Source of the DNA: Nitrospirota bacterium
Lineage (GTDB): Bacteria > Nitrospirota > Nitrospiria > SBBL01 > JAADHI01
Length of the DNA: 64,000 nucleotides
Direction of reading: 5' to 3'
Assembly: GCA_029261165.1 (NCBI GenBank)
Contig: JAJDBV010000001.1
Location: forward strand, 62,569 to 126,568
In this document: positions 29,499 to 54,326 of the stretch, piece after piece
How the letters are laid out: every line of letters starts with the position of its first letter
Numbering within the stretch: position 1 is the stretch's first letter
Translations under genes and position numbers: made by a program
Notes under the pieces: generated by a model
Told to the model about the DNA's origin: nothing
Databases searched by the model: none
The model's input: only the letters and a program-made list of their open reading frames with translations

Positions 29499-29903
29499 TT
29501 ACTTCGACTTTAAAGACTCAATGAGCGCCTCGATCTTTTGACGAATTAGGTCTCTGACTTTAACAAACTGATCCATCGGCATTGTTTTTGGGTCTGGGAT
29601 CGCCCAATCTTCTCTTTGTTTGGCCCTGATAATAGGACAAGCATCTGCGCATCCCATTGTAACAACCCAATCGTATTCAATATCAGGAATCTCATCTAAG
29701 CCCTTAGAGCGGTGTCCGGTCAGGTCGTAGCCGATTTCTTTCATCGAAGTAACCGCCTTATCATTCACCTTTCCTGAGGGGCGGGATCCGCTGCTATAAG
29801 GATCGATGATATCTGCACCAAGCATCCTGGCGAATCCCTCCGCCATCTGGCTTCTACAGGCGTTTTCTACGCAGACGAACGAGACTGTTTTCTTTTGATT
29901 CAT
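29499..29903 (-). CDS. arsC: Arsenate reductase, LMW-PTP (thioredoxin-coupled type) family
   Basis: CX5R P-loop VCVENACRSQMAEG, TMGCADACP and DWAIPDP motifs. The start ATG 29903 forms an ATGA overlap with the aquaporin stop (alternative ATG at 29912). The 205-aa track ORF extension is rejected. Confidence 0.8.
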   Translation of the reverse strand: MNQKKTVSFVCVENACRSQMAEGFARMLGADIIDPYSSGSRPSGKVNDKAVTSMKEIGYDLTGHRSKGLDEIPDIEYDWVVTMGCADACPIIRAKQREDWAIPDPKTMPMDQFVKVRDLIRQKIEALIESLKSK

Positions 29904-30568
29904 TGGCAACATTCTTTTTCTTTGAGAGAACGGCATCCGATGACGGCGAGAAACGCTCCGGTTATGGGCGCAAAGATATAGATCCAAAGGGGTCGAAGAT
30001 GGCCGCTTACCAATGCCGGTCCGATTGAGCGTGCCGGATTCATTGACGCACCGGATATAGGACCGCCCAAAAAGGCTTCTAAAGCAACGACCCCGCCGAT
30101 CATAAGACCCGCCCATCCTTTTTTTTGATGTGGACTCGACGTCAGGACACAGATGGTGAAGATCAAAATCAAGGACAATAAAACTTCGAGCACGAACGAT
30201 TCTATTTCACTTCCTCTTGGTAAAGTCGCCCCAAGAGTGGGATGATCAAGAAATAAGAATGAGAGTGTTCCGCTGGCAGCAACTGCACCGATGAGTTGAC
30301 TGGTGACATAGGGGAACACCTTTTTTCTTGGAAATTGTTTTCCGTACCAGAGTGCGATAGTCACGGCGGGGTTGATGTGCGCCCCCGAGATTTCTCTGAA
30401 TAAGTAAATCATGATGCCGACTGCGAGACCGAAAGTGAGTGCGATACCGGCCTGTGTGATCAGACCTCGAGTGATATCATTGACGACTATCGCGGATGTG
30501 CCGGAAAAAACAAGCACGTATGTTCCAATGAACTCCGCAAGAAAGCTTTTAAACGTCGTCGGTTTCAT
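29900..30568 (-). CDS. MIP-family channel (aquaporin/aquaglyceroporin), likely As(III)-conducting
   Basis: 222 aa, six TM helices, two NPA boxes (HINPAVT, SMNPARS). Translationally coupled to arsC. Confidence 0.85.
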   Translation of the reverse strand: MKPTTFKSFLAEFIGTYVLVFSGTSAIVVNDITRGLITQAGIALTFGLAVGIMIYLFREISGAHINPAVTIALWYGKQFPRKKVFPYVTSQLIGAVAASGTLSFLFLDHPTLGATLPRGSEIESFVLEVLLSLILIFTICVLTSSPHQKKGWAGLMIGGVVALEAFLGGPISGASMNPARSIGPALVSGHLRPLWIYIFAPITGAFLAVIGCRSLKEKECCQ

Positions 30569-30601
30569 AGATCTCTCCTATACATTTACATTCATAAAAA
30601 G

Positions 30602-32095
30602 TCAGTCCATCTTGACCATATATTCATAGTGGTTGCCGGCCTCCCCTGAACCCCTCCCATAGTAATGCCATTTCGGGAAATTGAAATCGGATGTAATCGA
30701 GGAGGGTTCCAGAAGCACCGCTTCCAAGAATTCCTCGAGGTTATTGACATTGTAAATGTTCACTTCAAAACCCCATTCATCCATTTGGTCAAAAAAGGGC
30801 AGCATGTTCTCGGTATGCCAATTCATCGCAAAACGGTTAACCCCCCAGCTTCTATACATGTCAAGTATATCTTTTGCCTTCTCAGGCGTGCTTAAGGCAA
30901 AAGGTACCAAAAACTCGATCGGCATTTGTAATATGGCCTTGGGATATGTAATCGCTAATGTCTTGAAGCCTTGTTGCTGTACCTTTTCAACATCTCCATG
31001 AAACCACAAACGTGAAGCATCCAATTTATAATAATCGACCAATTCGAGAAGACGATCGATTACCATTCCGCCTTCTTTAAAGTCAAACTTAAGCGACTTC
31101 TCTGTCTTTGATAAGCGGTTTACGAAGGAATCTATGTGGAGCCACTCTTCGTCCTTCATCCGAGGCGTCGTATCGATATGATCATGTCTTAATATGATGT
31201 CATCCCCGTCCGGGGACATGCGGACGTCACATTCACCCCACGTGATATCAGAAGATAGAAACTGTCGAAGATTGATTTCGTCATTTACCCCATGCCAAAC
31301 GAATTGAATATGTTTCGGAAGCGATTTTTTGTCGATTAACTCAGTCAGGTCATACCTGCTTCCTTTGATGGCATTATAAGGGAGCCGGACTCTCTTCGAC
31401 TCAAAGATGGTGTCGGCATGTAACAGGAAGATCTCCTCTTCAGGATCAATCTTTGCGATTTCCTTTAGGTTTTCGGGCTCATTGTCGACGACCGCAAATA
31501 CACGATATCCGTTCTCTTGAAATTTGCGTATCCCATCGACTTTCGCTTCTTTTACGCTTTGATCCCATCCGTATGGGTTCATTTGCAACAACGAGTCGGA
31601 AAATTCAACCTTATGTGATTTTCCAAGCTGGTTGAGAGAAATCAGGGTTTCTGTCCGCACCGATTCCGGGCGTCCGGTGTTTAAACCGACAAAAGTATTC
31701 GGCTGGAGCTGAAACCATCTGATCACTTCAAGGACACCCTTAAAGGGTCTATGCGCATTCAATATAGATGCTTCCATCCAACGATTTTGTCTATACCATT
31801 CTAATATGTCGTTCTGTTGATCAAGTGCAATATGCATCTCAGACAAAAGGCGATCAACCTGGTTTTCATGGACTTTAATCTGAGAAATCTGTAGATCTTT
31901 AAAATAATGAGTGTGATGAAGTCGGTCATAAGCGGCCAGGATATTGCGTATCATATACCGCATATCAAGAATGGTGCCGTCAATATCAAATACGATAACC
32001 AGCTTCTCATCCGAGTGAAGATAGTGACTGTTTTCAAAATGAGAGGCCAGCAAACTCATCCAATTTTCTTTTTTCTTCTCCGTTTTCATTTTCAA
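30602..32095 (-). CDS. HAD-family phosphatase fused to a GDPD/PLC-like phosphodiesterase-like domain
   Basis: 497 aa. HAD motif I VFDIDGT, motif II GLNTGRP, motif IV-like AVVDNEPEN. The C-terminal half, WHGVND...ECDVRMSPDGDDIILRHDH, resembles the HRG...E.DV...DG..V..HD signature of glycerophosphodiesterases. Assignment of the second domain is tentative. Confidence 0.5.
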   Translation of the reverse strand: MKMKTEKKKENWMSLLASHFENSHYLHSDEKLVIVFDIDGTILDMRYMIRNILAAYDRLHHTHYFKDLQISQIKVHENQVDRLLSEMHIALDQQNDILEWYRQNRWMEASILNAHRPFKGVLEVIRWFQLQPNTFVGLNTGRPESVRTETLISLNQLGKSHKVEFSDSLLQMNPYGWDQSVKEAKVDGIRKFQENGYRVFAVVDNEPENLKEIAKIDPEEEIFLLHADTIFESKRVRLPYNAIKGSRYDLTELIDKKSLPKHIQFVWHGVNDEINLRQFLSSDITWGECDVRMSPDGDDIILRHDHIDTTPRMKDEEWLHIDSFVNRLSKTEKSLKFDFKEGGMVIDRLLELVDYYKLDASRLWFHGDVEKVQQQGFKTLAITYPKAILQMPIEFLVPFALSTPEKAKDILDMYRSWGVNRFAMNWHTENMLPFFDQMDEWGFEVNIYNVNNLEEFLEAVLLEPSSITSDFNFPKWHYYGRGSGEAGNHYEYMVKMD

Positions 32096-33442: not shown

Positions 33443-33481
33443 TGTTAAGAAGATGTGGCTGGATTGTTAAGATTGTGTGAA
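33443..33481 (-). promoter_or_regulatory. Pho-box array (4 hexamers, 11-bp period) upstream of the porin operon
   Basis: The plus strand shows TGTTAA (33443), TGTGGC (33454), TGTTAA (33465), TGTGAA (33476). Read on the minus strand these are TTCACA TTAACA GCCACA TTAACA. The array lies 80-118 bp upstream of the porin start. Confidence 0.6.
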
Positions 33482-35467: not shown

Positions 35468-35506
35468 TTCACAGAAACTTGACAAATCCTTCATTTTTTC
35501 ACCACA
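35468..35506 (+). promoter_or_regulatory. Pho-box array upstream of pstS
   Basis: TTCACA (35468), TTGACA (35479), TTCATT (35490), ACCACA (35501), at exact 11-bp spacing. The array ends 74 bp upstream of the pstS ATG. Confidence 0.65.
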
Positions 35507-41024: not shown

Positions 41025-41104
41025 TGTTTCTCCTTGCCAGGCTCTACTGCGGGTCATAATATCGAGGGCTTATCGTGGCGTATTACAGAGATTCTGTCAA
41101 CCGG

Positions 41105-41143
41105 TTCACAAGAATTTAACTTTCCCTTCACAAAACCATAACT
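41105..41143 (+). promoter_or_regulatory. Pho-box array upstream of psiE (shared divergent region with phoB)
   Basis: TTCACA (41105), TTAACT (41116), TTCACA (41127), ATAACT (41138) at exact 11-bp spacing. A TATATT -10-like element follows. The psiE ATG is at 41186. Confidence 0.6.
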
Positions 41144-41185
41144 TCATTGGTTTATATTTCCCATTATCACAAAGAGGAGAAAAAC

Positions 41186-47031: not shown

Positions 47032-47262
47032 GAAAGTCAGAGGAGAGGGGATGGCAACACCGATCTGACATAAACATAGGATAAAGAGTCGTAAAAGAGT
47101 GCTGTTTGCTGGCACTCGCTAAGAAGCACTGAGCGGATTCAGGCGAAAAGAAACGATCACCTTAAACTCAGGTGGAGACCGTTGACCCAGGCAATTCAAA
47201 ATTTTTTATCTGTTGCTGAAACACGAAATCTCCTTTTACTTATGACAGTTATACATCGTATT

Positions 47263-48024
47263 TCAACATTTGCATAAGTGCCACCTTAGATAGTCTTTCG
47301 TTTGTTGCTGATATGGATTTGAAAAAACATTTTCACTCATCCCATGTTCAATAAGTTTCCCTTCACAAATAAAAACAACATCATCAGCGATTTTTTTTGC
47401 CTGATCCAATTTATGGGTCACGATAACAATCGTCAAATTTCCGCTTAATCGCCCGACCAGTTCTTCAATGGCACTTGTGGAGGTGGGGTCCAGTGAGGAG
47501 GTGGGCTCATCCATAAGTAATACCCTGGGTTCAACCGCCAATGCCCTGGCGATGGAAAGCCGCTGCTGTTGTCCCTGTGAGAGTTCCAGGGCGGAACGGT
47601 TTAGTTTGTCCTTTACCTCTTCCCATAAAGATACGGCCTTTAGCATTTCTTCTACAATCCGCGGAAATTCGTATTTCCTTCCGGAGCAGAGGTGTCTTAC
47701 CCCAAAGAGGACATTGTCATAAATAGACTTCGGAAAAATACAGGGTTTTTGGAAAACCATGCCCACGTTCTGGCGGAGGAGGGGAACTTTTGTGCCATTG
47801 TTATAGATATTTTCATCGTCAAAAAAGACTTCACCCCTGAGTCGAAAACATGGAATATGGTCATTCATCCGGTTCAGAGTGCGTAGCAGTGTACTTTTCC
47901 CGGCGCCTGATGGACCGATAATAGAGGTGACCTTTCCTTTATCAAAGTTCAGACTGACATTTTTCAAAACCGGTGACGTCCCATAATCGATGGAAACATC
48001 TTTCAAGGTAAAAAGGGGCTTCAT
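47263..48024 (-). CDS. pstB: Second PstB-type ABC ATPase
   Basis: 253 aa. GPSGAGKST, LNRMND, LSQGQQQRL, LLMDEPTS. Confidence 0.85.
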   Translation of the reverse strand: MKPLFTLKDVSIDYGTSPVLKNVSLNFDKGKVTSIIGPSGAGKSTLLRTLNRMNDHIPCFRLRGEVFFDDENIYNNGTKVPLLRQNVGMVFQKPCIFPKSIYDNVLFGVRHLCSGRKYEFPRIVEEMLKAVSLWEEVKDKLNRSALELSQGQQQRLSIARALAVEPRVLLMDEPTSSLDPTSTSAIEELVGRLSGNLTIVIVTHKLDQAKKIADDVVFICEGKLIEHGMSENVFSNPYQQQTKDYLRWHLCKC

Positions 48025-48866
48025 CTTTCCGCCTCCAGTGTGATTTTTTCCCGTATCAGCATTGATCCAATGCTCATGAACATAACCAGAGCGACCAATA
48101 CGAGCGCCGCACCCCAGGCATTGGTTAACGCCCGGGGGTTTATTGCCTCCTGGGCCAGAATTAAGATATGGGTCTGTAATGTTGTCACCGGTTCACGAAA
48201 TGAGGACGGGAGAAGAACACCGGAAAAGGTGGTGGCGGTAAACATGATCGCCGCTGTTTCTCCTGCCGCCCTGGCCAATCCCAGCAACAGCCCCGTTACC
48301 ACACCATGGAGAGACTGGGGTATTATGACGGCACGGACTAATCTTTCCTGTGTTAACCCCAGCGCCAACCCCGCTTCCAGATACTTAACCGGGATACTTT
48401 CTATTGCTTCCTTGATACTCACAATCACTGTGGGTAGAACCATGATGGCCAGGATAAAAGAGCCTGTAAGCCATGAGACTCCCAGTTTAAGAAAGACCCC
48501 GAAGAACATATATCCGAAGAGGCCGAATATAATAGTCGGTACAGCGTTTAAGGCATATACCAATAAATCTGCTGTTCCCCGCAGGGATGGACTTAAATAT
48601 TCTGTCTGGTATACTGCGGAGCCCAGGGCGATGGGAAGGGCCAAAACCCCTGCCGCACCTATCAGAATGAGTGTTCCCATGGTCTGATAAAAAATGCCCC
48701 CATTTTTACCGAATTCTCTTGATTCCGCAGTAAGAAACTCCAAATTGATTGCAGGCAGGCCACGGACAAAAATAGCGCTCAATATGATGAATAACAGGGA
48801 AATGGCCGTAACCGTTGTGGTGGTGCAGGCCGAGAAAAATATTACCTCTTTCAGGTCCCTTCTCAT
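48021..48866 (-). CDS. pstA: Second PstA-type permease
   Basis: 281 aa, six TM helices, EAA-loop IPVKYLEAGLALGLTQ. 4-nt overlaps with both neighbours. Confidence 0.85.
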   Translation of the reverse strand: MRRDLKEVIFFSACTTTTVTAISLLFIILSAIFVRGLPAINLEFLTAESREFGKNGGIFYQTMGTLILIGAAGVLALPIALGSAVYQTEYLSPSLRGTADLLVYALNAVPTIIFGLFGYMFFGVFLKLGVSWLTGSFILAIMVLPTVIVSIKEAIESIPVKYLEAGLALGLTQERLVRAVIIPQSLHGVVTGLLLGLARAAGETAAIMFTATTFSGVLLPSSFREPVTTLQTHILILAQEAINPRALTNAWGAALVLVALVMFMSIGSMLIREKITLEAER

Positions 48867-49765
48867 CTCTTTTTTTGTTTCATCTTATTATTGATTCCCC
48901 GGCCGGCCAGGGGGCCGACAATACTGTTTCCGATAAAGGTAATTCCCATCACCGTAAGAAAGAGAATTAAGCCTAATCCAGCCAGGGCATTCCAGTGATA
49001 CCCAACTCCCAAGGCCTCCGCCCCTTCTCTGCCCAGTTTTGAGGTAATGGTCTGACCGGTGGTAAAGATGTTATAAAAGGGCCGGGGTATTCTATCAAGA
49101 CTCCCGATGACCAGCATAACTGAAATTGTCTCACCCATTGCGCGGCCGATCCCGAGAAGAACCGCTCCTGCAATCCCTTTTATCGCGCCAGGCAGTACCG
49201 CATAAAGAATGGTCTCTGATCTCTTCAGGCCGAGAGCGAGGGCCTGGTCTCTATACTCTTTAGGTACAGACCTCAGGGCATCCTCGGAGAGCGTCATTAC
49301 GGTGGGTAAAATCATGATACTCAGGAGGATCCCTGCCGTAAAAAAAGAATTTCCATCAATCAGGTTGAACGTGTTCTTTACCGCAGTTGTTAAAAGGGAA
49401 ATGCCAAGAAGCCCATAAACGACACCGGGAATACCGGCTAGAAGTTCCATCATCATTTTAATGACAAGACGGACGCGTCCCGAAAGCACTTCCGAAGTTA
49501 TAATGGCGCTCCCCAGAGCCAGGGGAAGGGCAAAAGATACTGCGATAAAGGTGACGACACCTGTTCCGTAAATCATAGGGAGGGCTCCATAGACCTCGCC
49601 CGGATACCATTCACTGCCGGATAGGAATCCCAGCCCCTCATGTTGAAATATGGGGAAGCTCTCCATGATGAGAAAAATAAAGATGATTCCTGTGACGCTA
49701 ATCGAGATAAAAAAAGAGGAGGCGAAAAAGGCCCTGCCGGGACGCCACCTACTTAATGCCCACAT
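48863..49765 (-). CDS. pstC: Second PstC-type permease
   Basis: 300 aa, six TM helices, EAA-loop VPKEYRDQALALGLKRSETI. Confidence 0.85.
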   Translation of the reverse strand: MWALSRWRPGRAFFASSFFISISVTGIIFIFLIMESFPIFQHEGLGFLSGSEWYPGEVYGALPMIYGTGVVTFIAVSFALPLALGSAIITSEVLSGRVRLVIKMMMELLAGIPGVVYGLLGISLLTTAVKNTFNLIDGNSFFTAGILLSIMILPTVMTLSEDALRSVPKEYRDQALALGLKRSETILYAVLPGAIKGIAGAVLLGIGRAMGETISVMLVIGSLDRIPRPFYNIFTTGQTITSKLGREGAEALGVGYHWNALAGLGLILFLTVMGITFIGNSIVGPLAGRGINNKMKQKKR

Positions 49766-50600
49766 AACCGGATGCCTCCACTATCTTTTGTCCTTCAAGG
49801 CTTAAGATATACTGGATAAATTCCTTTGCAAAACCGGCAGGTTCACCGTCGGTGATCAGGGATAAATTCCTCGATATGGGGTAAGAACCGTTTTTTATGT
49901 TTTTGATAGAGGGTTCGATTACTGGTCCGTTGACTTCAATTCCGACCCCTTTTACATCCTTGTTAATCCATGCATGGGAAAGCATCCCGATAGCGGTATC
50001 GCTTAAGGCAATTTTAGTCTGCTCTTCATTATTGGAACCCGAGATCAGGTCCGCTCCCCTGGTCCTGGCATTTTCATCCCCGAAGATATAAGCCATAAAT
50101 ACATGCCGCGTCCCCCTGTGGGCCTCCTTGTCAATAACGAAGATACTTTTATCCGGCCCGCCAACCTTTTTCCAGTTATCAATCTCGCCTGTATAAATTT
50201 TTTGTATCTGTTCCCTGGATAGTTTTTTTACCCCGGCATCATATATCTCAGAGGAGATGACGCAGGCGACGGCATCTCTGCCGATGACATGGACGTTAAA
50301 ATCTATTTTCGGAAAGTTTTTGATCTCTTCATCGGTAATATGGCGTGAGATCATACCGATATCGACCAGGCCGTTTCCCAGGGATTTAGCCCCCACTCCA
50401 GACCCCCCGGGATTAATAGTTATATTGATGCCCGGATGGACCGCCATAAATTTTTCCGCTGCCCTGACTGCCACAGGAAGCACCGTTGTGGAGCCTGCCA
50501 TCTTGATCGTTGCTTTCTCCGCACCGACAGTGGAAAGGGGCAGGAACACAATTTCTGACAGTAGCATCAGGGAACATATAAAACCGATTTTTAATCTCAT
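49749..50600 (-). CDS. pstS: Second PstS-family (PBP-like-2) substrate-binding protein
   Basis: 283 aa, signal peptide, GSTTVLP...GGSGVG motifs of the phosphate-binding protein family. Confidence 0.8.
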   Translation of the reverse strand: MRLKIGFICSLMLLSEIVFLPLSTVGAEKATIKMAGSTTVLPVAVRAAEKFMAVHPGINITINPGGSGVGAKSLGNGLVDIGMISRHITDEEIKNFPKIDFNVHVIGRDAVACVISSEIYDAGVKKLSREQIQKIYTGEIDNWKKVGGPDKSIFVIDKEAHRGTRHVFMAYIFGDENARTRGADLISGSNNEEQTKIALSDTAIGMLSHAWINKDVKGVGIEVNGPVIEPSIKNIKNGSYPISRNLSLITDGEPAGFAKEFIQYILSLEGQKIVEASGYVGIK

Positions 50601-50664
50601 TTTTACTCCTTTACTTATATGGCTATAACCATACTTAGATACATCAGGTCAAAATTAATCCACT

Positions 50665-50979
50665 TTATGGTTCCTTAAAAGTCATCTTGCAGCATCCAAG
50701 GTTAATCGCCATCTCATCGTTCTCCCGCAATGACACAAGAACTACAGGATGAAGACTATAGCAGACCTTCTGGCCTTCACGCGATGAATCCAAGAGATTG
50801 GCATTTTTAAGAATTCCCAGATGATGGGCAATGCGTGGTTGAGTCAGGTTCAGCTCTTTGGCTATTTCCGTGCCGCATTTTTCTCCCTTGAAAAGAGATT
50901 TCAGAATCAAAAGCCGCGTTTCATCCCCCATAGCCCTCAGAATCCGCGCACATTCGTTTGTTGATAAGATATTTTTCAT
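50665..50979 (-). CDS. arsR: ArsR/SmtB-family transcriptional regulator with C-terminal vicinal cysteines
   Basis: 104 aa. wHTH (CGTEIAKELNLTQPRIAHHLGILKNANLL), no ELCVCDL motif, Cys96-Cys97 near the C-terminus. It sits 64 bp upstream of pstS2 on the same strand. Confidence 0.8.
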   Translation of the reverse strand: MKNILSTNECARILRAMGDETRLLILKSLFKGEKCGTEIAKELNLTQPRIAHHLGILKNANLLDSSREGQKVCYSLHPVVLVSLRENDEMAINLGCCKMTFKEP

Positions 50980-51363
50980 AATATTATTCCGGGATTCAAA
51001 TTATAAATGTATACACATAAGCAGATACTTTCTCAAATCCTTAGCATCTTGTCAAGGCTTTTTTGAATATCCCAGCCATGTGCACAACTCCCTTCACGCT
51101 CGGCCTAATTATTATTTTTAGTAGGAATAAAGTAATGTGTGGTGAAAGAATCCGTATGATATTTTCAACCACTTCGGTCTGAGAATTATTGATTTCTCCT
51201 CGCTATCGTCAATTCTCAGGCTTCTGTTTCTTTAGGATTGGACGGCCGCATCAATGAAGCTTTTTCCCTCCTAAAGTGTGATTTCTTACCAATAATTCGA
51301 AGTAGCACCTTTCACCTGGATATCGATAAAACTAAAGCGTTCTCTTTGCTAAAAAACAGGATA

Positions 51364-52191
51364 TTACCGATCCCGTTTCTGCATACTTTTCCGAACGAAC
51401 CTTCCGATAGCCAGGAAAAAGAAGATAAGGCCGAATGCACAGACAATTGAGGCCCCGGTCGGCGTGTCCCAGGCGACTGAAGCGGCAAGGCCGAAGAGGC
51501 TTGCCAGAAGCCCGATCCCCCACCCGATCCACAACCGGGATAGGATCCTATCTGACAGCATTAGGGAGATCAGGGCCGGAACAATCAGGTATGAAAAGAC
51601 GAGCAACACCCCCGCAAGGGCAACCGAACTGGTGACAACAAGGCCGAACGTCATATAGAAAAGGAGGTCCCAACTGCGAACACGATATTGTTTTGAAATT
51701 GCCTGATCCGGTTCAAAGGAGATCATGACAAACGGCTTACGAAAGGCCCAATGAAAGATTCCGACGGTGGTATAAAGCAGCGCCGTCTTGATGACCTCCT
51801 TTGGTGTTACGGTTAAGATATTCCCGACGAGAAGTGATCGAATATGTTCTGCCCCGCCCGGAGCCTGATCCAGAACAATCAGGCTGGCGGCTGCGGACAT
51901 GACATAGATCGTTCCAATAATCGCTTCCTGCGGGATCACCTCCCGGCGTTGGCGCGATAAGGAAAAGAAGACGGCTCCAATAAAGGTCATTCCCAGAGAA
52001 AGATAATACGCCGCCGGATCATGCAGGTCGTGTCCTAAAAGGAGGGCAAGCGTCGATCCTAACGCGGCCATTTGGGCCAATGCCAAATCGACAAAGATGA
52101 CCCCGCGGCGGACCACATGGATTCCAAGATAAGTATGAATCCCGGTCAGGATGAGGCAGGCGATGAAAGGCCAAATAAGTAGAGAAACCAT
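51364..52191 (-). CDS. ABC-3 family metal (Zn/Mn) transporter permease, ZnuB-like
   Basis: 275 aa with 8-9 TM helices. Layout is typical of ZnuB/TroCD/MntB permeases. Sits beside a ZnuA-like gene. Confidence 0.8.
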   Translation of the reverse strand: MVSLLIWPFIACLILTGIHTYLGIHVVRRGVIFVDLALAQMAALGSTLALLLGHDLHDPAAYYLSLGMTFIGAVFFSLSRQRREVIPQEAIIGTIYVMSAAASLIVLDQAPGGAEHIRSLLVGNILTVTPKEVIKTALLYTTVGIFHWAFRKPFVMISFEPDQAISKQYRVRSWDLLFYMTFGLVVTSSVALAGVLLVFSYLIVPALISLMLSDRILSRLWIGWGIGLLASLFGLAASVAWDTPTGASIVCAFGLIFFFLAIGRFVRKSMQKRDR

Positions 52192-52202
52192 TTAACTCCT
52201 TT

Positions 52203-53114
52203 TTATTCCAATGCAGTCGTTAAGGTTGCCACTATATGATCAAAGAGCTGAAAATAATCAGTCATCCCGGTTGCCTTTGAGACAGAGGGTGGAAGAACAA
52301 CAACCTTGGCCCCAGATTTTCTCGCAACGAATTGGGGCGTTTTAGAATTAAAATAAGGCTCAACGATGATGATTTTGACCTTTTCCTCTTTGATCCGTTC
52401 GATCAGTTGTATTAAATGGGACGACGACGGGGGAATCCCCGGCTTCGGTTCCACATAGCCGACTGCCATGAGGCCGAATCGCCGGAGAAAGTAGGGCCAG
52501 CTGTTGTGATAGGTGATCACCTTTTTCTCTTTAAACGGCTTCATCGCCTCGCTCCATCGGGCCATCGCCGCATCGAGTCTTCTGGAAAATTGAATGACGT
52601 TTTGATCGTATTGCTCCTTCCCTTCTGGGTCGATCCGCTTCAGGCCTGCCGCAATATTTCGAGCGATCTGTTTTCCGTTTAACGGGTCGAGCCAGTAGTG
52701 GGGATTTCCTTGTCCATGGACGTCCCCCGCGGAGCGGTCAATCCGTTCCCTGGGAACCTCAAGAAGTGCCACCCCCTCTGAGGCATCGACATGACCATTT
52801 CTCCCCCGTAGAATCTTGACGTTTCGAGCCCCCATTAATAATGAAGGGATCCATTCGGCCTCTAAGCCCAAACCGACCTGTACAAAGAGTTTGGCCCGCG
52901 AGAGTTTCAGCATGTAACTCGGCTTTGCCTCGATGAAGTGGGGATCCTGCACCCCTTTGGCGATAAAATCGACCTGAACCCGATCCCCCCCGATCTCCCT
53001 TGTAATGGCGGCCAGATCTTCCGTCGTCGTGATGACCTTGATCGGAGCGGCGTCAACGGATAGCGGAATTTGCATGGCCACAAGCAAAACACCCCAAACA
53101 AATATCTGTTTCAT
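52203..53114 (-). CDS. Metal ABC transporter substrate-binding protein, ZnuA/TroA-like
   Basis: 303 aa, signal peptide. Cluster A-I SBP pattern (DPHFIEAKPS, NPHYWLDP, HNSWPYF). Confidence 0.8.
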   Translation of the reverse strand: MKQIFVWGVLLVAMQIPLSVDAAPIKVITTTEDLAAITREIGGDRVQVDFIAKGVQDPHFIEAKPSYMLKLSRAKLFVQVGLGLEAEWIPSLLMGARNVKILRGRNGHVDASEGVALLEVPRERIDRSAGDVHGQGNPHYWLDPLNGKQIARNIAAGLKRIDPEGKEQYDQNVIQFSRRLDAAMARWSEAMKPFKEKKVITYHNSWPYFLRRFGLMAVGYVEPKPGIPPSSSHLIQLIERIKEEKVKIIIVEPYFNSKTPQFVARKSGAKVVVLPPSVSKATGMTDYFQLFDHIVATLTTALE

Positions 53115-53123
53115 TTGACCCCC

Positions 53124-54326
53124 TTAAAAAATATGGGCGGCATGCGCGCCGATTAAAAACTCATATTGGACAAAAACCGCATGAATCGGATCTGCTAGGT
53201 CATCCGAGCGATCCAAGTTATACTGAAGGCGGATCTTCGAGAACTCCGAGGGATAAAATGTCAGATTCGGGGAGATGCGCCATCGGTCTCCCGTCCGCGG
53301 ATCGTCCGGCTTGGTCGCATCAGCCTGTCCATATCGGAAACCAGCGACCCATCGCCTTTTAAATCCATAGAGCGACTGGATGTAAAATCCGTCCGTATTG
53401 AACCTCTCTTCAGGAAGCGCAGGAAGCGTGTTTGTTTTACCCGCCTCGTAGGATCGCCGCATGACCTCCCCCTGTAAGGTTACAAAGGGCCAGCCATGGT
53501 CGGTCATAAGCGGTTTCCATTTGACAAAGAGATCGATCCCAAGAATCCGCGTCTCCGTATCGATCCCCGTTCCGTTTGAACCAAAGAGATGAGAGGTTCC
53601 GACAACCCAGGTGACTGTCTCACTCAGATCAAAAGAGGTCTTAAGGCGGCTCATATAAAGAAGATCGTTCCCACTATGGATCTCTTTATCGAGGATCGGT
53701 CTTCCGGCGAAGGTTTCTCCAGAGGTCGAGAGGAAACTTGTGGCCGTTTCCCCCTTGGCGTTTTGTGCACTCCCGATCAGCTCCAGGTAAAAGGGGAGGG
53801 GAAGGAGGGCAGAGATCTGAACCCCGGGATTTCTGATCCCATCCCCCCCGAACATCAATGTATTGATAATGGTCTGGTCGGCGAAGTCCCACGCATGGGG
53901 ATGCAATCGATTCAGACGGCCAAACCGCGTGAAAAACTGACCGGCCATAATCTGGAATCCGTAGGGAAGGCCGAGCGTCGTTAAAAAGGCCTCTTCAACC
54001 TCAACGAACGATTCTCCATCTTCTAACCCGAAGATCAGATGCCCCTCGGCACGGAAAAAGGGATCGACGACGCCAGTGAAGGTCAACTCCAGGTTTTGTA
54101 GGGTAAATCCTCTTTCGTTCGGGTCATGCGCGCCGAACTGAAGATTCTCCGGTTCGGAAAAATATCCGGCCGCAAATAACCCGTCCAGAGAGATATCAGG
54201 ATTGAAACTTTGCGGCCTCTTTGATTGAGACCTGATAAGAGGCCCCTCCTGAGCGAATACAGGTGTAGCAATTCCCAATAGGGCAGATAGCATCAAAACG
54301 AACCAAATCATAATATTCTCCTCCAT
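53124..54326 (-). CDS. Outer-membrane beta-barrel protein of unknown family
   Basis: 400 aa, signal peptide ending VFAQE, alternating beta-strand pattern, C-terminal HIF. First large gene of the Znu-like operon. Confidence 0.55.
   Translation of the reverse strand: MEENIMIWFVLMLSALLGIATPVFAQEGPLIRSQSKRPQSFNPDISLDGLFAAGYFSEPENLQFGAHDPNERGFTLQNLELTFTGVVDPFFRAEGHLIFGLEDGESFVEVEEAFLTTLGLPYGFQIMAGQFFTRFGRLNRLHPHAWDFADQTIINTLMFGGDGIRNPGVQISALLPLPFYLELIGSAQNAKGETATSFLSTSGETFAGRPILDKEIHSGNDLLYMSRLKTSFDLSETVTWVVGTSHLFGSNGTGIDTETRILGIDLFVKWKPLMTDHGWPFVTLQGEVMRRSYEAGKTNTLPALPEERFNTDGFYIQSLYGFKRRWVAGFRYGQADATKPDDPRTGDRWRISPNLTFYPSEFSKIRLQYNLDRSDDLADPIHAVFVQYEFLIGAHAAHIF

Follow-up and report, generated by a model that had tools for sequence, protein, structure and literature searches.

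This analysis concerns a five-gene cluster, arsR-pstS2-pstC2-pstA2-pstB2, on the minus strand of a 64,000-nucleotide stretch of DNA from a Nitrospirota bacterium (contig JAJDBV010000001.1), which we refer to at its full length as the window. The first gene, arsR (50665-50979), encodes a 104-amino acid repressor of the ArsR/SmtB family, an assignment that draws on its open reading frame (ORF), its matches to HTH_5 (PF01022; 54.9 bits, cutoff 22) and NF033788 (79.6 bits, cutoff 55), alignments, and an AlphaFold model. A gap of 64 bp (50601-50664) separates it from pstS2 (49749-50600), which encodes a 283-amino acid periplasmic S-type binding protein of the PstS family with a signal peptide. The genes for the permeases PstC2 (48863-49765) and PstA2 (48021-48866) and for the ATPase PstB2 (47263-48024) follow, and these four transporter genes, which we call pst2, overlap one another by 17, 4, and 4 bp in that order. 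An earlier note on this DNA had placed arsR 64 bp upstream of pstS2 on the same strand and had described the overlaps, and the ORFs bear out both points. About 90 bp 3' of pstB2, on the same strand, a consensus scan returned a terminator-like hairpin (47158-47174), which is a weak candidate since matches of this kind are no more numerous than in shuffled sequence. Upstream of arsR, the minus strand at 51364-54326 carries znuB-like (ABC-3) and znuA-like genes and the gene for a 400-amino acid protein without a family match; no ATPase gene was seen beside them.

When the four transporter proteins were compared with Pfam and NCBIfam profiles, both permeases scored above their equivalog cutoffs (PstC2, TIGR02138, 247.6 bits against 196.45; PstA2, TIGR00974, 201.7 bits against 193.45). 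The Pst families are also the best matches for PstS2 (197.7 against 206.6) and PstB2 (TIGR00972, 326.8 bits against 343.2), with scores that fall slightly under the cutoffs, which indicates that pst2 is a somewhat divergent Pst system. With a PstC/PstA pair, a PstB, and a PstS-family protein in a single operon, the cluster has the make-up of a PstSCAB importer.

The association between this regulator and this transporter is not particular to the window. The ArsR of the window had no exact match in the contig index, and the comparison was made with homologs. ArsR homologs with 65-100% identity occur in metagenome-assembled genomes of Nitrospirota, Candidatus Anammoxibacter, and Thermodesulfobacteriota, and the transporter cassette lies 3' of every one of them whose contig is long enough. 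In three of these loci (L001, L002, and L004) arsR is followed by PBP_like_2, permease, permease, and ATPase genes in that order, although the flanks are wholly different. We also scanned genomes for PstS2 relatives using the peptide patterns DKExHRGTR and AIGMLSxAW; relatives were confirmed at 253 stretches and 80 loci from species genomes were retained. Nearly all of these 80 loci have the four-gene cassette, and 18 of the 80 have this ArsR gene directly upstream of it. Across the lineages that they represent, we found no conserved neighbour family beyond the cassette, so the znuA/znuB-like genes of the window are best regarded as coincidental neighbours. We did consider arsR as a member of that upstream group and rejected the idea, given that no other locus has the same flanks and that the pst cassette is the constant element. 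These comparisons support the assignment of ArsR to the pst2 genes rather than to the znu genes. The recurrence of the five-gene unit across several phyla suggests a dedicated module for arsenic-triggered phosphate uptake, and we found no description of an arsR-pstSCAB module in the literature.

Two further ArsR clades broaden the picture. Among the 50 loci of a metagenome scan seeded with ArsR, 7 hold close relatives and approximately 30 belong to a second clade that is 38% identical to the window's protein, ends in AINLGCCKISFD, and precedes PstS-PstC-PstA-PstB, with PstC and PstA again above their equivalog cutoffs. In two second-clade loci (L099 and L116) a gene for a phosphate-selective porin comes after the cassette. 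Four others (L098, L105, L108, and L110) have a canonical PstS-like gene (RD..SGTG) on the opposite strand, roughly 400-1500 bp 5' of arsR, such that two binding proteins of differing pocket type flank a single regulator. The third clade, found on planctomycete-like contigs, ends in NLGCCKILVPLD and is encoded on the strand opposite to a PHO4/PiT-family permease gene, with a rhodanese gene nearby (L128, 931-3433; L134, 1304-3795). The PitA and CysP-type sulfate permease families match this permease with equal scores, and in L128 the gene between it and arsR encodes a two-domain rhodanese.

We next consider whether pst2 falls within the Pho regulon. The window contains a canonical Pho cluster at 32-41 kb, comprising the genes for porin O/P, phoR, pstS1-C1-A1-B1, and phoB, and this cluster provided a local definition of the Pho box. 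From the upstream regions of pstS1 and the porin gene we derived an array of four TT[CAG]ACA hexamers with 11-bp spacing and scanned both strands with it. Only three such arrays occur in the whole window, compared to 0.05 in shuffled sequence: one in the porin O/P promoter (33443-33481, minus strand), one in the pstS1 promoter (35468-35506, plus strand), and one in the divergent promoter of phoB and the ORF that starts at 41147 (41094-41143, plus strand). No array lies near arsR or pstS2 (47-51 kb), the three arrays elsewhere in the window serving as the positive control, and there is no phoU among the ORFs of the cluster. The earlier note's statement that neither gene is preceded by a Pho-box array therefore holds under a controlled four-hexamer scan, and since no array is present near either gene, pst2 lies outside the recognisable Pho regulon. 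A search for Pho boxes of the Nitrospirota style upstream of cassettes that lack ArsR also found none, a result that is uninformative across phyla. In nine Nitrospinaceae loci (L025, L034, L036, L041, L044, L049, L050, L054, and L070) a conserved TGTAAGGT...CGAC block stands approximately 60-130 bp 5' of pstS2, upstream of a TTGCAT -35 element, and CTGTC-like repeats with an 11-bp period may lie within it on the opposite strand. This block might be a lineage-specific Pho box or the site of another regulator.

We turn next to the cysteine residues of ArsR as its candidate sensor site. The AlphaFold model (pLDDT 82.6) has helices at residues 7-16, 20-31, 36-42, and 47-59, strands at 63-68 and 71-76, and a helix at 78-87; together with the HTH_5 match, this a1-a2-a3-a4-b1-b2-a5 topology is the winged helix-turn-helix of the ArsR/SmtB family. 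As the earlier note had reported, the classical ELCVCDL site is absent and a Cys96-Cys97 pair is present. Alignments of the closest clade show no variation at Cys10, Cys35, Cys96, or Cys97, in contrast to Cys73; when all three clades are compared, conservation is limited to Cys10 and the Cys-Cys pair, Cys35 being missing from the other two. The model positions Cys10 within the initial turn of helix 1 and has Cys35 as the N-cap residue of helix 3; the beta-hairpin at the C-terminus (residues 90-101), which follows the short helix 5, bears Cys96-Cys97 at its tip. Every characterised As(III)-responsive ArsR site uses three thiols, and evolution has produced these sites repeatedly, at positions that differ between proteins (PMC11868830). 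Because the three conserved thiols of the present clades match this pattern, a trivalent metalloid is favoured as the inducer.

We compared this set of cysteines with the sites of characterised ArsR proteins. Within the sequence GEKC35GTEIA, Cys35 occupies the position of Cys32 in R773 ArsR, without the remainder of the type 1 site (Cys32/34/37, helix 3). The earlier note had likened the C-terminus to that of the Acidithiobacillus ferrooxidans protein, AfArsR, and this likeness stands in part. The vicinal C-terminal pair is shared, but no third C-terminal cysteine is present in the tails of 16 close homologs or in the other clades, so that the type 2 site of AfArsR (Cys95, Cys96, and Cys102 at the C-terminal end of helix 5) is not reproduced; the third cysteine conserved clade-wide is Cys10, and the model places the pair in a hairpin. 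In ArArsR, from Cytophagaceae and Flavobacteriaceae, the site consists of Cys41, equivalent to Cys32 of R773, together with Cys80 and Cys82 in the beta-sheet. By these described positions, Cys35 matches Cys41, and the window's protein has only one beta-sheet cysteine (Cys73), which is a tyrosine in several homologs. In SpArsR the C-terminal Cys-Cys pair provides the only sensing ligands and the response is to methylarsenite, MAs(III), and not to arsenite; the pair is shared with our protein, but here Cys10 is conserved too.

Could ArsR instead sense some other thiol-reactive signal, such as reactive sulfur species or persulfides (as BigR and SqrR do), oxidants, or Cd, Pb, or Zn, with the importer being an ordinary second phosphate system deployed under that stress? 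By sequence and by fold, ArsR is no nearer to AfArsR or CgArsR than to CzrA, SrnR, HlyU, SqrR, and BigR. Its fold matches include CzrA, SrnR, and HlyU, and its similarity to the AfArsR structure 6J05 is low (26.5 bits by sequence, rank 46 by fold). Further points in favour are the rhodanese and PiT/CysP-like permease genes beside the third clade, the zinc-uptake-like znuA and znuB genes a short distance 5' of arsR in the window, and an alignment by eye of Cys35 with what we take to be the sensing cysteine of BigR-type proteins. Against these points, Cys35 is absent from the other two clades, and arsenite sites are characterised by a vicinal Cys-Cys pair with one more cysteine, in contrast to the two widely separated cysteines of persulfide sensors. 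The genes that flank the module, among them znu, show no conservation with it, and arsM-like or ArsM genes lie in the operon or its neighbourhood in two phyla, as described below. Taken together, we judge a non-arsenic signal to be rather unlikely. A weak NCBIfam match to 'TsoR' was also followed up and was dropped when the literature gave no lead.

The other partner in the module, PstS2, resembles phosphate-binding proteins in sequence and fold. It aligns over its full length to S-type phosphate-binding proteins (including 4Q8R), its model has a pLDDT of 91.2, and its best 41 fold matches in the PDB are all phosphate-binding proteins. The nine phosphate ligands of Clostridium perfringens PBP-1 have been described (PMC5381212), and seven of these positions are kept in PstS2 (S37, T38, T39, S67, S85, G163, and T164). 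The other two are replaced, Arg125 of PBP-1 by Lys158 and Ser129 by Arg162, with His161 adjacent. The resulting pocket signature, D157-K158-E-x-H161-R162-G-T-R, shows no variation within the clade, and none of the solved relatives that we aligned has it; DKEx[HS]RGTR is found in essentially all of the 120 best PstS2 homologs. The binding proteins of the second ArsR clade, which are 33% identical to PstS2, share the Lys/Arg swap (V[VI]NKA[EQ]GRSTL in 25 of 26), and some of their loci also hold a divergent canonical PstS (RD..SGT). The Thr-Asp-Arg triad of S-type proteins, which is proton-accepting and recognises protonated anions such as HPO4(2-) (PMC13614923), is present as T39, D109, and R244, all of which are conserved in the family. 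Ser85 stands where the Asp of the low-barrier hydrogen bond, the only known determinant of high arsenate discrimination, would be. The PstS1 of the window is SphX-like (GPPPTSGTR); thus, both binding proteins are S-type and this Asp is absent from both.

The two replaced ligands raise the question of whether the transporter carries phosphate at all. The anion bound in the Lys158/Arg162 pocket could be a thio-oxyanion, arsenate destined for methylation or for the synthesis of arsenosugars, or some other tetrahedral anion. Two binding-protein clades of only 33% identity, both of them linked to ArsR, carry the Lys/Arg swap in fixed form, and in some second-clade loci a divergent canonical PstS (RD..SGT) accompanies the Lys/Arg-type protein. 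In addition, PstS2 and PstB2 score under the curated family cutoffs, and an arsenosugar-type ArsM adjoins the cassette in Flavobacteriaceae. On the other hand, seven of the nine ligand positions and the proton-accepting triad are kept, SphX binds phosphate despite the loss of the same Arg (PMC13614923), and both permeases exceed the equivalog cutoffs for PstC and PstA. Four loci (L063, L065, L099, and L116) have a gene for a phosphate-selective porin next to the cassette, and the import of arsenate in response to arsenite would be self-harming. We therefore regard a substrate other than phosphate as distinctly unlikely.

We looked for a shared DNA motif in the gap between arsR and pstS2. Expectation-maximisation on the arsR-pstS gaps of 15 loci yielded a motif of 20-22 bp, roughly GTATGnAnGTATnTAnATAG, that has dyad character, carries 17-21 bits of information, and lies 30-57 bp 5' of pstS2 in all 15. 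Using a matrix built from the other loci to scan the 64-kb window, we obtained as the top match 50623-50642, which overlaps a 16-bp near-palindrome, TATGGTTATAGCCATA (50618-50633); together, two overlapping matches make up an operator-like site at 50615-50642 on the minus strand, within the arsR-pstS2 gap. Likewise, when each locus of 10-16 kb was scanned in leave-one-out fashion, its gap site gave the highest score. A further operator-like site, GTATCTGCTTATGTGTATAC, is found upstream of arsR (51009-51028, minus strand; scan rank 4-5), starting 21 bp after a TTGACA at 51050-51055. Second motif sites also occur 5' of arsR in four other loci (L005, L006, L007, and L009) and 5' of an arsM-like gene in Nitrospiraceae. 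The repeat finder did not report these short dyads, and they consequently rest on the motif model. In the second ArsR clade a perfectly conserved layout consists of TTGACT, 17 nt, a TATAAA-like -10 element, and then the palindrome TTCATATGAA, which is, at the level of sequence, the layout expected of an autoregulating repressor. We also observed a palindromic matrix match, GTATTTCAACATTTGCATAA, over the stop codon of pstB2 (47258-47277), with approximately 12 bits on both strands.

Genes of arsenic metabolism accompany the module in several lineages. In four Nitrospiraceae/Nitrospirales loci the operon reads arsM-like, arsR, pstS2CAB, and the best match of the first gene is an arsenite methyltransferase (216 bits, cutoff 263). 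In a Flavobacteriaceae locus (L042; Bacteroidota), an arsenosugar-type ArsM (568 bits, cutoff 400) is encoded beside a PstS2-type cassette and a divergent ArsR that ends in NCC; divergent ArsRs similar to this one are found in L063 and L064. In a Leptobacterium locus (L038) an ArsM homolog is directly 5' of pstS2. A radical-SAM gene at the anammox loci, considered as a candidate arsenosugar ArsS, was dropped because it shows no visible relation. Within the window itself, a family search identified a MIP channel gene (29900-30568, minus strand) and a low-molecular-weight protein tyrosine phosphatase (LMW-PTP) ArsC-like gene (29499-29903, minus strand), a gene pair that recurs elsewhere. The pair lies 33 bp 3' of a HAD-phosphatase-like gene of 497 amino acids, which itself comes after the Pho-box-driven porin gene (29499-32095 in all, minus strand). 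A possible third operator-like site (30578-30597, minus strand; scan rank 1-2) is located 10 bp 5' of the pair. These features suggest a double coupling of arsenate detoxification, with the Pho regulon on one side and the ArsR of pst2 on the other. Together, the conserved cysteine triad, the arsM-like, ArsM, and ArsR neighbours, and the site before the channel-arsC pair make an arsenic link of the module plausible.

On balance, we lean towards reading pst2 as an arsenite-derepressed phosphate importer that operates outside the Pho regulon. The gene content, the recurrence of the module, the shared cysteines, the pocket signature, the common DNA motif, and the missing Pho box are seen in the sequences; we infer that the reader of the motif is ArsR, the inducer a trivalent metalloid, the transported anion phosphate, and the physiological purpose the protection of phosphate supply. 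In the absence of inducer, an ArsR dimer would occupy the AT-rich dyad of approximately 20 bp in the arsR promoter and in the arsR-pstS2 gap and would shut off arsR and pstS2CAB alike, which would amount to autoregulation. Binding of As(III), a related soft metalloid, or methylarsenite to Cys10 and Cys96-Cys97, to which Cys35 may add in the closest clade, would release ArsR from the DNA. The derepressed cell would then make a Pho-independent phosphate ABC importer whose S-type PstS2 carries a relocated arginine (Lys158/Arg162). The likely purpose would be to maintain the phosphate supply while arsenate competes at the Pho-regulated uptake route. The earlier note had proposed an arsenic-responsive phosphate importer, and from the comparative evidence the pairing of arsR with pst2, the independence from Pho, and a plausible arsenic link all survive; the resemblance to AfArsR survives in part, and the acquisition that it had read from base composition, considered below, does not.

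Several observations weigh against an arsenite-derepressed phosphate importer. In ArArsR, the C-terminal Cys-Cys pair is dispensable for sensing (PMC11868830), and S-type binding proteins are the least arsenate-discriminating known (PMC5381212). The position of the third-clade ArsR gene, beside a rhodanese and a PiT/sulfate-permease-like gene, also fits a sulfur-species sensor. A consensus scan of the 64-bp gap gave no sigma-70 promoter that we regard as convincing. The first-clade motif also forms the -35/-10 spacer of pstS2 in Nitrospinota loci that lack an ArsR gene over a distance of 7 kb; in these organisms the motif is read either by an unlinked regulator or by a different factor. Finally, the channel-arsC pair is preceded by just one match, which lies in an AT-rich gap of 33 bp and has no phylogenetic support; with MIP homologs that are at most 60% identical, no phylogenetic footprint is available for it.

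The earlier note had also contrasted the base composition of pst2 with that of pst1 and had taken the difference as consistent with horizontal acquisition. Its two 60-nt spot counts, 20 and 31 G+C, are accurate; they are unrepresentative, however, and the argument fails in a windowed analysis. The G+C content is 0.468 for the cluster, 0.499 for the window, and 0.516 for pst1. The per-gene z-scores range from -0.1 to -1.5, 14.8% of all 3717-bp windows have a G+C content equal to that of the cluster or lower, and pstS1 (0.466) and pstS2 (0.464) are equal. The cluster is thus within the normal range of the window, and its composition lends no support to horizontal acquisition. Of what that note reported, then, the genes, the cysteine pair, and the absence of Pho boxes were confirmed and the compositional claim was not.

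A history of transfer may be considered on other grounds. PstS2 shows greater similarity to proteins of Thermodesulfobacteriota and anammox bacteria (69-76%) than to those of Nitrospiraceae (54-56%). The window also contains an F-type conjugative transfer module (2584-27329) with a primase-like gene and genes for a type IV coupling protein, TrbI, TraN, TrbC, TraF, TraH, TraG_N, and an SLT transglycosylase. No tRNA gene was found in the window, which may lie on or beside a plasmid or an integrative conjugative element. The similarity pattern of PstS2 and the conjugation module make past mobility of the cluster plausible. To go further and regard the cluster as a recently acquired AT-rich island, in which the regulator is incidental, strikes us as highly unlikely. 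That explanation draws on the same similarity pattern, on the conjugation module 20 kb away, and on a cluster G+C content approximately 1 SD under the window mean; however, the composition is in the normal range (the 15th percentile of the window) and no integrase, tRNA, or repeats bounding the cluster were found. Moreover, the pairing of regulator and transporter is kept over large evolutionary distances, which argues that the regulator is not incidental.

Returning to the arsenite-derepressed importer, a more far-reaching proposal can be framed, although we hold it only tentatively and think it somewhat doubtful. Under this proposal, the module would be undescribed and widespread, consisting of an ArsR clade with a new three-thiol site (Cys10 and the hairpin Cys-Cys pair) that switches on phosphate uptake, through Pst in two subclades and PiT in the third, plus a PstS lineage in which Lys158/Arg162 would provide an Asp-independent means of phosphate/arsenate discrimination. 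Arsenate enters cells via phosphate transporters, and how bacteria protect their phosphate supply under arsenic is only partly understood; in the only well-studied case, that of Agrobacterium, the PstS is an ordinary one and the arsenic island is large. The pst2 module couples a candidate arsenite sensor with a binding-protein lineage altered at two direct ligand positions, and its hosts are environmentally important anaerobes and nitrite oxidisers. Should the inference be correct, the module would add a new type to the metalloid sites of ArsR proteins, would offer a candidate for a second way of telling phosphate from arsenate, and would supply a simple genomic marker of arsenic-phosphate coupling in metagenomes.

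Some known systems resemble individual parts of the window. The MIP channel gene followed by the ArsC-like reductase gene at 29.5-30.6 kb recalls the AqpS-ArsC pair of Sinorhizobium meliloti, which reportedly detoxifies arsenate through the two-gene logic of a channel and a reductase, and the pair in the window may share its regulator with pst2. Unlike AqpS-ArsC, the reductase in the window is of the LMW-PTP type, arsR and arsH are not adjacent, and the pair follows Pho-box-driven genes. For the binding protein, the closest likeness is to C. perfringens PBP-1 (4Q8R) and to SphX and Sll0540 of Synechocystis, with which PstS2 shares its fold, the Ser in place of Asp, the Thr-Asp-Arg triad, and the Ser/Thr ligands at two helix N-termini. 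PstS2 departs from PBP-1 in having Lys158 for Arg125 and Arg162 for Ser129, along with His161.

With respect to the regulator, the vicinal C-terminal cysteine pair and the absence of ELCVCDL are shared with AfArsR (Cys95/96/102) and with the MAs(III)-selective SpArsR. The ArsR of pst2 differs from AfArsR in that it lacks the third C-terminal cysteine, has the N-terminal Cys10 instead, and carries the pair in a predicted beta-hairpin. As for the system as a whole, extra pst operons recur in arsenic islands (PMC3834237), and in Agrobacterium tumefaciens ArsR1 represses the As(III)-inducible pstS1/phoB1 locus, which is separate from the Pho-controlled pst (PMC7965956). We liken pst2 to the logic of ArsR1: as with pst1/phoB1 of A. 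tumefaciens 5A, a second pst operon stands apart from the Pho-controlled one, has an ArsR-family repressor, and has a tie to arsenic, which for pst2 is a plausible one. In contrast to that locus, pst2 is a compact five-gene unit with no surrounding aio/ars island, phoB, or phoU, its ArsR belongs to another clade with another set of cysteines, and its PstS2 has a Lys/Arg pocket. The hosts differ as well, in that A. tumefaciens is one of the Proteobacteria, whereas the pst2 module is found in Nitrospirota, Thermodesulfobacteriota, and anammox bacteria.

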